Shown in pieces: positions 31,881-36,020 of a stretch of 64,000 nt of DNA (positions are counted from its first letter, which is position 1; every line of letters begins with the position of its first letter). The stretch is taken from assembly GCA_045658525.1 (NCBI GenBank), contig JAZOVD010000030.1, forward strand, positions 25,714 through 89,713. The letters run 5' to 3'. Origin of the DNA: Eubacteriales bacterium. Its GTDB lineage: Bacteria > Bacillota > Clostridia > Oscillospirales > CAG-272. The notes below the pieces were generated by a model, which worked only from the letters and a program-made list of their open reading frames with translations, was not told where the DNA came from and did no database searches. The position numbers were made by a program, and so were the translations under genes.

Positions 31881-31896
31881 TAAAATAAAATAAAAT

Positions 31897-31938
31897 CTCC
31901 GCATCTGTATGTACAAAGACGGGTGCGGAGTTTTGTTT
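31897..31938 (+). terminator. terminator hairpin
   Basis: CTCCGCATC-N15-GGTGCGGAG followed by TTTTGTTT. Confidence 0.6.
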
Positions 31939-31975: not shown

Positions 31976-32004
31976 TTGACATATAAACCCTTTTATAGTA
32001 TAAT
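31976..32004 (+). promoter_or_regulatory. consensus sigma-A promoter of the 32-36 kb island
   Basis: TTGACA (31976-31981), 17 nt, TATAAT (31999-32004). The leader is about 110 nt. Confidence 0.65.
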
Positions 32005-32115
32005 ATAGGTGTAAGGAGGACGAAGAATATTTACGGCAAAGGTAAAAACATAGGCAAATACACAAGTAAACAAAGGTTTTTCATCACTTTTCTGACTACG
32101 AAAGGAGAAAGTAAA

Positions 32116-34839
32116 ATGAAAAAAAGAACTTTAACAAAAATTCTTACACTTCTGCTCACTTTGTGCATTCTGTCAGTATCGGTTATGCCGATATTCGCCG
32201 CAAGTATCACTACCGACAGCGAGGTACTGACAGGCGAGGACATAGTAAAAGAGGATGAAACAAAGCGTGAGCGCTTTTCAAAGCATTTCTTAACGGGTGA
32301 CGGCAGTTATTTTGCCGTTGCGTACGCGTCACCGGTAAATTATATGGACGACGACGGTACTTGGAAAGAAGTCGATAACACTATGACCACGAATATTTTT
32401 ACCGGCGACAAAACAACTAAAAACGATAAATTTAAAGTAAAATTCTCAAACAAAGCAAATAAAGATAAGTTAGTTACCATACAGACAGACGAATTCAAGG
32501 TCTCGTGGGGGCTTAGTATATCGGGTGACGGAGAAAACTACGGTAAATTAAGTTCTGTAAAGGGCGCAGCAAGCTACGACGCGAGTGAGCCAAAGACCAC
32601 CAAAGAGGCGACCAAGCTCGGAAAAGCTGTTTCGTCTATGAAATATGAAAACGTTTACGACGGCAAGGTGGATTTGCAGTATAGCGTTTCTCACGAAAAA
32701 GTAAAAGAGAACGTTGTTTTAAAAGAAAAAACGGATTTCGTTTCGTATCGCGTAACGTATAACATAAAAGATACCGCAACGGAGCTTCTTTCCGACGGAA
32801 GCGTTATCTTCCGTGACACGGATGGAAACGTACTTTTTGAGGTTGGCGCACCCTTGATGTGGGATGAAGCCGGCGAAAGCTCCTCGGATATAGCCGTCAG
32901 CGTTGAGCATACCTCAAAGAAAACGGTGGAGATAACCTATACACCAAGCGCGGAGTGGTTAAACTCCGATGAGAGAGTTTATCCTATCGTGGTTGATCCG
33001 TATATGGAAACCTCACAAGAAACAAGCAATATTATGGACACGAGAGGTTATTATTATTATCCGCTTGATGCACAATATGAGGCTACCGCGCCCGCGCTGA
33101 TAGTTGGTTTTGATTATTTAGTGTATCTTAAAATATTAAATGTTCCGCTACTTCCGGCTGGTATGACGGTACAGAGTGCTAATCTTGTAATATACGGAAG
33201 CGACTTACAAATACCAACGGATGGTGCTGATGACTTGTTTTACGGTTTAGGTAAAGTCACTCAGTCTTGGACGGATGAACTGTTCGTAAGCGATGATGAA
33301 GAATATAATGAGCGTGTAAATCCGGATAACGCCTACGAAATGTTTGGAGCTGGGAATTTCCCCTCTGTTAGCATGTATGCTTATTATGACGTATATGAGG
33401 ATATTGTGTACGATTGGAATGGTATATATTATTCGAATCTTGATATTCCAAGTGATTTTTGGAATACTTCCGGGGGCTATAATCAATATTTTTCCACATA
33501 TAAGGGATTCCAAATTTCCCTCGACTATAGATGTGGCTGGCAGTTGTATTCCGGAGATTTTTATGATGAATATTATCGTCCATCTCTTTCGGTGAGATAT
33601 TCGGTACCTTCCGGACCTAATATTTCAAGCGATAATTTTTACAGAATAAAAAATAAATACACTGGAAAGTATCTTACCATAGGAACTGATAATGCTACGG
33701 GAATTACTAATGTGTATCAATCAAACCTTATACCTGATCCGAGCAGTCAAGTATTTAAATTTGAATATAGCCACGTAAGAGGAGCTTATCAAATAAGAAC
33801 TTATAGCTCTGTTATTTCAAATAGCGACAATGGATATATAAATTTTGACCCATCACAATTTCCATATATGCTACCAAGTAATTATTCAAATGCCGAAATA
33901 GGTCAAGACATATATAACTGGATAATATCTGCAGTGGATAGTACATCTGTTTCAGCGGGATATACCATAACTTATACCAACATGCCTTCTTTTGGACTTC
34001 GCGCTTACGGAGCTAAGAACGGAACTCCGCAAAACACAGGACAGAATAACGGAAATATTGGTGTAGGTTATACCGCAGCTGGTGCCAATGGTAGCGCATG
34101 GGTATTTGAAAGATATGATGTACCTGCTAATTTAGCCCTTAATATGGTTGGAATACGAGAGGAGAATTTTAATAATCATGTTACTAGTGTAACATCAAAT
34201 TTTGTAGGATTGGGTTATGATCCGAATGACGATATGTATATAAATACTGATATGTCATACGATGTAGATGAATTTATATCTATGCTTGAAAATGCTGAGA
34301 TAAGTATAGTTTCTTCGCACGGTGAACAAAACGCAATAAATATTACTTATGAGGGCATACAAATAACCGGTTCGGATTTTAAAACATATGTTCAGACTCA
34401 ATCGGAAGAATATGGTCAGGAAAACTATTATCAATATGTGGATTTAAGTCATGTAGAATTGGTGGTATTATCAACGTGTCTTAATGCGTCAGGGGTTGGT
34501 TATAATGATACTGTTGTAGTTGTTTCGCCAACTTCTTCTCCGCGTAATATGATGGAGATGCTAATAAAATGCGGTGTAAAATGTGTAATAGCATTTGAAG
34601 ATGAGGTGGGTGAAATAGATGGAAGTGAATTTTGTATAGATTTATTTACCCAATTAAACTCCAAAGTTAATAATAAATACTTAACATTGGAGCAAGCATT
34701 GATTGCTATATATGATGAGGGAGGATATTCAACAATTCCTTGGGCTAACGTTGTAGTCGGTGTACGCGAAGCTGGTATGGAGGATAGAACCCTTGAGGAT
34801 ATGTTGTCAGCTTATAGAGAGGATAACTATGGTACATAA
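32116..34839 (+). CDS. secreted multidomain protein: WapA/Rhs-style N-terminal region + DNRLRE-like domain + ricin-type lectin-like domain + CHAT/caspase-like C-terminal domain
   Basis: Signal peptide MKKRTLTKILTLLLTLCILSVSVMPIFA. N-terminal region ERFSKHF...YPIVVDP. LPAGMTVQSANLVIYGS...VTQSWTDE is DNRLRE-like. YRIKNKYTGKYLTI...SQVFKFE...GSAWVFERYD is beta-trefoil-like (nt about 33630-34120). ISIVSSHG (His735, nt 34318) and LVVLSTCLNASG (Cys788, nt 34477) have CHAT-like spacing. Confidence 0.8.
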   Translation: MKKRTLTKILTLLLTLCILSVSVMPIFAASITTDSEVLTGEDIVKEDETKRERFSKHFLTGDGSYFAVAYASPVNYMDDDGTWKEVDNTMTTNIFTGDKTTKNDKFKVKFSNKANKDKLVTIQTDEFKVSWGLSISGDGENYGKLSSVKGAASYDASEPKTTKEATKLGKAVSSMKYENVYDGKVDLQYSVSHEKVKENVVLKEKTDFVSYRVTYNIKDTATELLSDGSVIFRDTDGNVLFEVGAPLMWDEAGESSSDIAVSVEHTSKKTVEITYTPSAEWLNSDERVYPIVVDPYMETSQETSNIMDTRGYYYYPLDAQYEATAPALIVGFDYLVYLKILNVPLLPAGMTVQSANLVIYGSDLQIPTDGADDLFYGLGKVTQSWTDELFVSDDEEYNERVNPDNAYEMFGAGNFPSVSMYAYYDVYEDIVYDWNGIYYSNLDIPSDFWNTSGGYNQYFSTYKGFQISLDYRCGWQLYSGDFYDEYYRPSLSVRYSVPSGPNISSDNFYRIKNKYTGKYLTIGTDNATGITNVYQSNLIPDPSSQVFKFEYSHVRGAYQIRTYSSVISNSDNGYINFDPSQFPYMLPSNYSNAEIGQDIYNWIISAVDSTSVSAGYTITYTNMPSFGLRAYGAKNGTPQNTGQNNGNIGVGYTAAGANGSAWVFERYDVPANLALNMVGIREENFNNHVTSVTSNFVGLGYDPNDDMYINTDMSYDVDEFISMLENAEISIVSSHGEQNAINITYEGIQITGSDFKTYVQTQSEEYGQENYYQYVDLSHVELVVLSTCLNASGVGYNDTVVVVSPTSSPRNMMEMLIKCGVKCVIAFEDEVGEIDGSEFCIDLFTQLNSKVNNKYLTLEQALIAIYDEGGYSTIPWANVVVGVREAGMEDRTLEDMLSAYREDNYGT

Positions 34840-34840
34840 G

Positions 34841-35980
34841 ATGAAACTGATTCATAAAATCTTAATTCCAATAGCCGCGCTTGTTATAGTTTTTTGCAAT
34901 CTTTTTCTGTTATTTGGATATCAATATGATATTTGTTTTGAAACAACAAGCTCGTATTTTGAAAAAAAAGCAAATCAAACATTGGCTGCGGAACATAAGC
35001 TATATCCTAAATACGATGTTTTTTATTCCTCTACGGACTATGATGTTTTTGAAAAAACGTTAGAGCTTGATGGCATAACGTACACCTGTAAGTCAACACA
35101 TTCGGCATTTTATGAGGATTATAGATACCATACAGAATACTATTCGTTCAAGTCGGAATATGGAGAATTTGTAAGCTTCGAGGCTTACGGAGACCAAATA
35201 TATTCTCTTACCTTTCAGCAAAAAAAATCTGATACCGACACCGGAAAACCTTCTCGGGAGCTTGTATATGAGTACGTTGAGAGATATTGCGGAAGCGTTT
35301 TAATGGATTATAGCGGGGATTTATATGAGGATTATAAATATATTAGTTATACTCCGTATGACCTCGCACATAATAATCGAGATTATGTATATTATGATTT
35401 TCTTGATTTAGGAAATTGTCATCTCCTTGTAAAATATGCTGACGGAAAGCCTACGAACGATATAATAAAGGTCACTTTGACAAACACGGGCGATTTGCGC
35501 GAAATACGAATGTTAGGATTCCCAATTTTCCCAGATACGGAAGTGAAAATTCCCGAAAACATCTTGAAAAACGCCGTTTGCAGATATTTTGACAATCATT
35601 CAAAGAAATATATAGAACTTGCCCACTCCGATGATGTTATAGACGAATTTGAATTGGGCGATTTTGAGAGCATACGTATATTTAAAACTCCGCTTGGAGA
35701 ATACGGAGCAAGAGGTTGGATAAAAGTTACCTACAACAAATATAACGGGTACGTTTATGACAAAGAAACGGATAGCTTTGTTCTCGGAGAGCCGACCACG
35801 GTAACCGACAATATTTTTATATCAACCATGCTTACCTCACCTGACGTTATTGTAAAGACAGTTATAGCGATAGCGTTTGAAACATTGTGTCTCGGATATA
35901 TAGTGACCGTTATAGTTATGTATATTATCAGACGCAAAAAATCCACCATTCCCACCGAACAGGAAGAACAAACCGAATAA
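34841..35980 (+). CDS. Tyr/Asp-rich membrane protein with TM helices at both ends, unknown family
   Basis: ATG 34841 begins 1 nt after the upstream TAA (34837-34839), which suggests translational coupling. N-terminal TM ILIPIAALVIVFCNLFLLFGY, C-terminal TM VIAIAFETLCLGYIVTVIVMYII followed by RRKK. The 34760 start overlaps the upstream gene and is rejected. Confidence 0.75.
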   Translation: MKLIHKILIPIAALVIVFCNLFLLFGYQYDICFETTSSYFEKKANQTLAAEHKLYPKYDVFYSSTDYDVFEKTLELDGITYTCKSTHSAFYEDYRYHTEYYSFKSEYGEFVSFEAYGDQIYSLTFQQKKSDTDTGKPSRELVYEYVERYCGSVLMDYSGDLYEDYKYISYTPYDLAHNNRDYVYYDFLDLGNCHLLVKYADGKPTNDIIKVTLTNTGDLREIRMLGFPIFPDTEVKIPENILKNAVCRYFDNHSKKYIELAHSDDVIDEFELGDFESIRIFKTPLGEYGARGWIKVTYNKYNGYVYDKETDSFVLGEPTTVTDNIFISTMLTSPDVIVKTVIAIAFETLCLGYIVTVIVMYIIRRKKSTIPTEQEEQTE

Positions 35981-36020
35981 ACCCAAAGCCGTCGCGAAAG
36001 CGCCGGCTTTGGGTTTTATC
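35981..36020. terminator. bidirectional terminator between convergent genes
   Basis: ACCCAAAGCCG-N12-CGGCTTTGGGT followed by TTTTATC. Confidence 0.7.

Follow-up and report, generated by a model that had tools for sequence, protein, structure and literature searches.

What would a clostridial bacterium do with an exported protein that begins like a wall-associated toxin, carries lectin-like domains and ends in a caspase-like peptidase? The question is raised by a 907-residue open reading frame (ORF) in a 64,000-nucleotide stretch of DNA from a member of the Eubacteriales (GenBank assembly GCA_045658525.1, contig JAZOVD010000030.1, positions 25,714 to 89,713 of the forward strand), hereafter the window, and by the 379-residue ORF that directly follows. 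We are highly confident that the longer ORF encodes a secreted CHAT-like peptidase. As to what it is for, we think it probable that it is a polymorphic, Sec-exported protease effector of gut Clostridia, made together with an immunity protein tethered to the producer's membrane. The argument draws on the following features, given by position in the window.

32116-34839, + strand: secreted multidomain protein, ORF of 907 residues from an ATG start to a TAA stop
32116-32199, + strand: predicted Sec signal peptide, residues 1-28, cleaved between IFA and AS (hydropathy and n/h/c layout by inspection, a heuristic call)
32233-33000, + strand: constant N-terminal module, residues ~40-295 (homolog identity, profile hidden Markov model, HMM)
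32971-33000, + strand: ERVYPIVVDP junction motif, residues 286-295, at the constant/variable boundary (R287, Y289, P290, D294 and P295 invariant; break in identity)
33025-33606, + strand: divergent DNRLRE/CBM96-like domain, residues ~304-497 (hhalign, relatives' scores)
33622-34119, + strand: ricin-type beta-trefoil lectin-like domain, residues ~503-668 (RicinB_lectin_2, family profile)
34126-34806, + strand: CHAT/caspase-like clan-CD cysteine peptidase domain, residues 671-897 (profile, conservation, AlphaFold2 (AF2) model with Foldseek)
34318-34320, + strand: codon CAC of His735, predicted catalytic His (149/150 conserved; aligns with DdvA H862)
34477-34479, + strand: codon TGT of Cys788, predicted catalytic Cys (150/150 conserved; aligns with DdvA C907)
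34841-35980, + strand: 379-residue gene, candidate immunity/inhibitor partner, 'type A' (1-nt gap, transmembrane segments, hhalign)

The product thus reads, in order, signal peptide, WapA-type N-module of ~260 residues ending in ERVYPIVVDP, DNRLRE/CBM96-like domain, ricin-type beta-trefoil and C-terminal CHAT/caspase-like domain. An identical 907-residue protein is held in NCBI-derived data (P0001). The motifs that an earlier note on this DNA had quoted all lie where it placed them: ERFSKHF at residues 52-58, YPIVVDP at 289-295, LPAGMTVQSANLVIYGS at 346-362, VTQSWTDE at 381-388, YRIKNKYTGKYLTI at 509-522, SQVFKFE at 544-550, YQIRTYSS at 558-565, GSAWVFERYD at 659-668, ISIVSSHG at 729-736 (containing His735), LVVLSTCLNASG at 782-793 (containing Cys788) and GVKCVIAFEDEV at 820-831. 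They are not chance matches, because E46, D47, R51, H57, R287, Y289, P290, D294, P295 and W385 are invariant across 15 homologs and because His735, Cys788 and Gly820 are conserved among 150 relatives. Since the protein alone scores below the curated thresholds, every domain call was tested through relatives. A search of PDB sequences with the full-length protein gave zero matches, and the sole match of a first, shallow PDB profile, CFA/I fimbrial subunits, was a spurious repeat match and was discarded. All the modules named in the earlier note are present, each of them divergent and confirmed solely by profile and structure methods and by homologs.

The identity of the protein is set by its C-terminal domain, which the earlier note had read as a clan-CD, CHAT/caspase-like peptidase with His735 and Cys788 as its dyad, a reading that stands. 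The domain is a divergent CHAT-like one and not a model-defined member of Pfam CHAT (PF12770), judged by sequence scores of 14.7 bits for the whole protein and 18.1 bits for the domain against a gathering threshold of 24. Its closest homologs, P0002 (28.2 bits) and P0010 (24.1 bits), which align to residues 616-891 and 715-847 of the query, respectively, exceed that cutoff. The Pfam and NCBIfam HMM searches that the earlier note had proposed gave a divided answer, with homologs reaching the CHAT cutoff and the query itself staying below those for CHAT, lectin and DNRLRE. A word-index search with the C-terminal domain alone missed even the query, and exhaustive HMMER was used instead; from a five-sequence profile it returned 1016 relatives at E <= 1e-3, of which 139 reached E <= 1e-10. 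Among the top 150 of these, His735 is conserved in 149 and both Cys788 and Gly820 in all 150. When 35 representative domains were compared with Pfam, 25 matched CHAT (best E 4.9e-8), four Peptidase_C25 and one C50. The profile built from these 35 sequences matches the SAVED-CHAT structure 8tl0 (E 4.8e-4), and in a weaker alignment to 8rot the invariant His and Cys fall on H862 and C907, the experimentally assigned dyad of DdvA (PMC11506125).

Structure prediction and fold comparison, also proposed earlier, point the same way. The AF2 model of the domain (predicted local distance difference test score, pLDDT, 83.7; predicted template-modelling score, pTM, 0.85) places His735 after strand 727-733 and Cys788 after strand 782-786, and the two strands are adjacent; a loop between them is of low confidence. 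The top Foldseek matches are all of clan CD, namely SAVED-CHAT 8tl0 (2e-6), Csx29, separase, DdvA and caspase-4/11, with probability 1.0 and query TM-scores (TMq) of 0.46-0.57, and a secreted Bacteroides C11 protease ranks 37th. Membership in C11 or C25 was rejected, C11 being a weak fold match and C25 a minority of the sequence matches (4/35). That the dyad is intact is strongly supported by these alignments and by the model, and peptidase activity is predicted.

Export is predicted from the other end of the chain. By inspection and hydropathy the N-terminus has a basic n-region (MKKRTLTK), a hydrophobic core of ~20 residues and an AxA-like site between IFA and AS; homologs show an equivalent putative cleavage site between PVFA and VTI. 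At least 30 of the 150 nearest CHAT-domain relatives share both the N-module and the C-terminal CHAT-like domain, so that the domain order, which the earlier note had suggested surveying for and did not recognise, recurs widely; 26 of 30 relatives with this architecture begin with a hydrophobic N-terminus. A further 40 of the 150 are proteins of ~400 residues in which a signal peptide is followed by the CHAT-like domain and then by a tail of ~180 residues, 41 have other N-termini with the CHAT-like domain again C-terminal, and 39 are short or fragmentary. On these counts the CHAT-like clade is therefore largely exported. The tailed proteins are a second exported architecture in their own right (P0017, P0018, P0022 and ~37 others), of ~400-430 residues, with the CHAT-like domain directly after the signal peptide and a conserved C-terminal tail; in P0015 this CHAT-plus-tail unit is joined to the N-module and DNRLRE.

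Between head and peptidase lie two domains that suggest contact with glycans. The DNRLRE-like block proposed earlier scores 10.3 bits in the query alone (NCBIfam NF033679, E 0.54), short of the cutoff of 34, and 51-73 bits at the equivalent position in P0014, P0015, P0026, P0036, P0041, P0078 and P0104. Residues 296-500 of the query family, aligned by hhalign to bona fide DNRLRE regions, match with 95% probability (E 4e-8) over 157 columns (3-174 of 176), and some relatives with the same N-terminus also match CBM96 (PF24517). The beta-trefoil segment follows a similar pattern. RicinB_lectin_2 (PF14200) gives the query 17.3-19.5 bits (E 0.0017 for the segment) against a threshold of 25.6, the orthologous segment of P0002 44.7 bits and three other segments 20.7-23.7 bits, and it is among the top matches in all five orthologous first-lectin segments (E 2e-11 to 2e-3, and 2e-11 to 7e-4 for the orthologous segments set against the query). 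The family profile matches solved ricin-type lectins, with HA33 (profile positions 523-632), mosquitocidal toxin (9e-14) and ThreeFoil (7.5e-19) among them, and three QxW-like lobes, SQVFKF, YNWII and SAWVF, are visible in the sequence. In both cases the earlier assignment is upheld by the relatives.

The head of the protein tells us what kind of family this is. Its N-terminal ~260 residues match no Pfam family and no PDB sequence, and they are 40-45% identical to those of P0002-P0012. The N-module HMM also matches the Rhs proteins L015, L016 and P0016, the last of which runs N-module, DNRLRE (91 bits) and YD repeats, which bears out the earlier description of this region as WapA/Rhs-style. 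The 15 closest homologs, from metagenome-assembled genomes of uncultured gut Clostridia, Oscillospiraceae and Eubacteriales, have the N-terminal part in common and diverge in the remainder. Behind the shared head stand CHAT-like ends (the window, P0002, P0008, P0010, P0015, L013), matrixin/M10 ends (P0003, P0004, P0009, P0012, P0013), lipase ends with a GHSMGG motif (L004, L009, L011) and further ends that include other enzymes or modules and Rhs cages. In the pairs P0002/P0005, P0006/P0007, P0004/P0009 and P0008/P0010, identity is ~86-100% over residues ~50-250 and 54-96% over 251-300, then falls to ~20%, and the collapse comes exactly after the invariant ERVYPxxxDP. Such pairwise comparison strongly supports exchange, by recombination within the family, of everything that follows this motif. 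A constant head, variable ends and a motif that marks them off are the organisation of a polymorphic toxin.

Several other observations concern this head and the slot behind it. P0005 and P0007 share, at residues ~850-1146, a C-terminal module of ~300 residues that has no Pfam match and occupies the slot of the CHAT, matrixin and lipase ends; it may be an unrecognised effector domain. The Rhs protein at L015:9977-16228, which has the same N-module, continues after its Rhs-associated core with a Gly/Ala-rich hydrophobic segment and a domain of ~130 residues, and may be a membrane-acting toxin. An IMG/VR contig classed as viral (L025:5420-8098) encodes an 893-residue protein with the N-module (HMM E 4e-77), a DNRLRE-like region and an unrelated C-terminus in place of a CHAT-like domain. 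A phage origin is not supported, as the viral-contig scan gave this one distant relative with a different end. A metagenome scan with one family alignment found no relative.

The gene that follows varies with the end of the gene before it. The 379-residue protein, whose ORF lies 1 nt from the stop codon of the 907-residue gene, has transmembrane segments at residues 1-20 and ~336-355, an external domain of ~310 residues and a basic tail, and it has a single other homolog (P0166) in 5.8 billion sequences. Two-transmembrane proteins of a family that we call type A directly follow the CHAT-type P0002 and P0010 and are homologous to one another (E ~1e-13). An HMM of type A gave no match to the 379-residue protein of the window; hhalign, in turn, aligns the protein with the type A family at 95.1% probability (E 3.4e-8, 213 columns), against 0.9% for a type B control. 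Type A thus holds the first downstream position at 3/3 close CHAT-type loci (the window, L017, L018). Type B, a lipoprotein with a C-terminal transmembrane segment, is the first downstream gene at 4/4 matrixin loci, and homologous members of a third, lipoprotein family directly follow 3/3 lipase-type proteins. In this small and related sample, the family of the first downstream gene, assigned by sequence, is seen to track the type of the end. The earlier note missed both the cassette-swapping polymorphism and the co-varying neighbour.

Some related loci have arrays or orphans as well: six genes lie downstream in L023, L001 contains two additional type A paralogs, and in L013 there is a lectin-lipase module truncated at its N-terminus. 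At L013:1986-9363 the main protein has a CHAT-like end (THG...LSC...NVIGF) and is followed by a 352-residue lipoprotein and then by an 873-residue ORF without the N-module, which shares 56% identity with the lectin region of the main protein and has a GHSMGG lipase end; by our analysis it looks like an orphan module of the kind seen in Rhs and contact-dependent inhibition (CDI) loci. At L023:3643-9646 (compare L001:13118-17000) a matrixin-type member is followed by six consecutive unannotated membrane or lipoprotein genes, among which are duplicates of type B-like genes as well as type A genes 'belonging' to CHAT-type proteins; the arrangement, so analysed, resembles a poly-immunity array. At L020:6951-11953, WYL, Peptidase_S24, M78 and PemK-toxin genes adjoin the matrixin-type P0003 and its lipoprotein, which suggests a mobile or defence-island neighbourhood.

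We propose a model where the modular effector is exported by Sec and its N-module and lectin domains hold or target it on a glycan-bearing cell surface. There the cysteine peptidase would cleave proteins exposed on the envelope of competitors, or some other target coated with glycans. The co-transcribed 379-residue protein, with a transmembrane helix at each end, would be anchored on the outside of the producer's membrane, where it may bind and neutralise the peptidase and so serve as the immunity protein. We infer a toxin/immunity function from the layout, which is typical of bacterial toxin/immunity systems.

How the pair sits among its neighbours bears on this model, and the features concerned are these.

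31888-31938, + strand: terminator-like hairpin and U-run ending the upstream GtaA-like gene, left cassette boundary (fold -24.3 kcal/mol, z -7.1)
31976-32004, + strand: candidate sigma-70-type promoter, TTGACA-17 nt-TATAAT, 12/12 to consensus (consensus scan; a consensus match only)
32103-32107, + strand: AGGAG ribosome-binding site, 8 nt before the ATG (sequence reading)
35979-36016, no strand assigned: 17-bp inverted repeat and U-run, terminator between the operon and a convergent GDSL-like gene, right cassette boundary (fold -29.1 kcal/mol, z -6.6)

The 907-residue gene and its 379-residue neighbour form an operon of low guanine-plus-cytosine (GC) content bracketed by terminators. GC drops from ~0.53 to 0.31 at the left boundary hairpin and is 0.32-0.47 within the cassette and ~0.5 outside. 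Inside, it is 0.32-0.39 from the lectin/CHAT half through the partner gene (33300-36000) and 0.42-0.47 over the N-module, as would fit a variable end that was gained along with its partner and independently of the head. The flanks of the cassette show no convincing direct repeats and nothing convincing that resembles an attachment site. The best reading is that the two genes arrived jointly, by horizontal transfer, as a low-GC cassette with its own promoter and terminator.

The alternative that survives best, and one that we hold to be unlikely, is that of an ordinary secreted exoenzyme, a lectin-targeted cysteine protease that degrades host or dietary glycoproteins such as mucins for nutrition or colonisation, its varied ends reflecting different substrates and its partner being a self-protecting inhibitor or unrelated. 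The cassette lies among ordinary genes, for a DHH phosphoesterase, TruB, a GtaA-like hydrolase, the GDSL-like protein, a GH29 fucosidase and a fucose isomerase, and the hydrolase, fucosidase and isomerase would suit such an enzyme. So would the ricin-type (CBM13-like) and DNRLRE/CBM96 domains, which are typical of glycan-directed enzymes, and the fact that gut anaerobes secrete clan-CD proteases, as the Bacteroides C11 match recalls. The cassette is nonetheless foreign in composition to those flanks, with a promoter and terminators of its own, and its N-module is common to Rhs toxins. A sharp recombination break, co-varying downstream genes, arrays and orphan modules would all be unexpected for nutritional enzymes.

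Clearly less probable is that the CHAT-like domain is an autoprocessing peptidase that cuts its own chain, for example near ERVYPxxxDP, and so releases the lectin part from a wall-bound N-module. The junction motif (32971-33000) does end in an Asp-Pro bond, and beyond being a landmark of recombination it is perhaps also a site of processing or cleavage. Most caspase-like domains of polymorphic toxins are regarded as peptidases with a releasing role (PMC3482391), and self-cleavage has been proposed for the CHAT domain of DdvA (PMC11506125). Here, however, the CHAT-like domain comes last, with nothing downstream to release, in the position assigned to toxin versions (PMC3482391). The same slot holds matrixins and lipases, neither of which is a releasing peptidase, and 40 relatives consist only of signal peptide, CHAT-like domain and short tail.

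We find it very improbable that the two proteins are a surface signalling pair in the manner of DdvA, the exported peptidase cleaving the membrane-tethered 379-residue protein when a glycan outside the cell gives the cue. Signalling by a CHAT domain outside the cytoplasm has its precedent in DdvA, and the partner is indeed membrane-anchored with an external domain. However, only a tail of ~15 residues reaches the cytoplasm, no signalling domain is recognisable in the partner, the operon is without a sigma factor or regulator, and such a pair would not account for the exchange of protease, lipase and Rhs ends. Scarcely credible is a caspase-fold domain without catalysis that serves a surface adhesin for binding, a notion encouraged by the sub-threshold CHAT score and the low-confidence loop. 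His, Cys and the Gly on the strand that follows are conserved in nearly every one of the 150 relatives, which argues for retained catalysis.

Several points weigh against a Sec-exported effector with a tethered immunity protein. The query alone falls under all of the curated thresholds (CHAT, RicinB_lectin_2, DNRLRE), its signal peptide was judged by eye and the proximity of the dyad in the AF2 model was read from strand positions. The 379-residue protein is tied to type A by profile-profile comparison of shallow alignments, a link that the HMM missed; co-variation rests on seven loci that are not independent, and matrixin loci, too, contain type A genes, if not in first position. The window has no orphan modules, second copy or arrays. 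Nutritional and host-directed exoenzymes, too, typically join lectin or CBM-like domains to proteases or lipases, and all members of the family are known from sequence comparison and models.

With these points taken into account, we continue to favour the effector with its tethered immunity protein. Beyond the single locus, we advance tentatively, as a possibility that falls somewhat short of an even chance, that such proteins form a previously unrecognised class of Sec-exported polymorphic effectors of gut Clostridia, free of an Rhs cage, in which a WapA-type head of ~300 residues and the ERVYPxxxDP junction carry swappable lectins and surface-acting enzyme ends (CHAT-like peptidase, matrixin or lipase), each with an immunity protein anchored on the outside of the membrane. 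In the literature searched, a stalk of lectins that has no Rhs cage, the junction at ERVYPxxxDP, the range of ends that act on surfaces and the membrane-tethered partner families appear undescribed.

If this wider reading is right, these would be contact-independent or wall-associated weapons that strike the Gram-positive envelope from outside, and a CHAT-family protease would be an antibacterial toxin. CHAT-type caspase-like proteases would gain an extracellular weapon role beyond CRISPR signalling and that of the cyclic-oligonucleotide-based antiphage signalling system (CBASS). Little is known of competition among the abundant, mostly uncultured gut Clostridia, to which this would add a Sec-dependent effector system with lectin targeting, surface-acting proteases and lipases, and membrane-tethered immunity proteins. 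The ERVYPxxxDP junction offers a practical handle for finding further cassettes. Were the nutritional account true instead, the locus would add one more secreted clan-CD protease, of modest interest.

How new is this arrangement? The earlier note held that characterised prokaryotic CHAT proteins are cytoplasmic parts of conflict systems, and it did not recognise an exported, lectin-targeted version as described. This case for the protein's standing out is not supported. DdvA is a characterised protein whose CHAT domain is periplasmic (PMC11506125), and caspase-like C-terminal toxin domains (Tox-Caspase) were predicted in 2012 in polymorphic toxins, Sec-exported ones and Firmicutes included (Zhang et al. 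2012, PMC3482391). Novelty was overstated, because periplasmic and toxin-borne CHAT or caspase-like domains and secreted clan-CD proteases were already described and because the architecture recurs in dozens of uncharacterised proteins of Clostridia.

Tox-Caspase, which is known from computational prediction only and is compared here by description, comes close. A caspase-fold His/Cys peptidase comes last in an exported protein whose N-terminus is constant and whose ends vary, Sec export (as type II secretion system, 'T2SS') and Firmicutes are listed, and the gene immediately following is in the immunity position. Tox-Caspase examples, however, have Rhs or filamentous repeats and the cytoplasmic immunity families Imm36 and Imm57, whereas the protein of the window has a DNRLRE and ricin-lectin stalk and its partner has two transmembrane segments and faces outward.

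The WapA/Rhs toxins of Firmicutes have in common with this family a Sec signal peptide, here a predicted one, an N-terminal domain of unknown type followed by DNRLRE, and a C-terminus that is polymorphic; their downstream immunity genes and orphan modules would correspond to the candidate partner genes and to the orphan-like modules of related loci. In Streptococcus suis WapA the N-terminal region likewise has a DNRLRE domain (PMC12704120); the prefix of P0016 matches the prefix of that protein, and the same N-module heads the true Rhs proteins P0016, L015 and L016. Those relatives have YD/Rhs features, whereas the query matches none of YD, RHS, DUF6531 and LysM. Membership of Rhs/WapA proper was rejected, as the query lacks YD repeats and shares the N-terminal prefix only. 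The protein of the window also ends in an extracellular-type peptidase and not an encapsulated nuclease, and the break falls after ERVYPxxxDP rather than at the DPxGL end of the Rhs core.

Csx29/TPR-CHAT (Craspase), SAVED-CHAT and DdvA have the same caspase-like fold and His-Cys dyad and are the best structural matches, and DdvA, too, has its CHAT domain outside the cytoplasm. The characterised CHAT proteases are TPR- or SAVED-fused, regulated parts of CRISPR and CBASS defence, whereas the protein of the window has neither TPR nor SAVED, is freely exported and lectin-fused, and is ~12-15% identical to them. Clostripain (C11) and gingipain (C25) are likewise exported caspase-fold cysteine peptidases, often with adhesin- or lectin-like accessory domains, that act in reduced gut or oral environments; the domain described here is nearer to CHAT (25/35 relatives) than to C25 (4/35), and C11 is a weak fold match. 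In staphopain-staphostatin operons, the gene of a secreted cysteine protease is directly followed by that of its specific inhibitor. Staphopains are papain-like and staphostatins are small cytoplasmic beta-barrels, whereas the partner in the window is large, membrane-tethered and extracytoplasmic, and the family to which the pair belongs is polymorphic.

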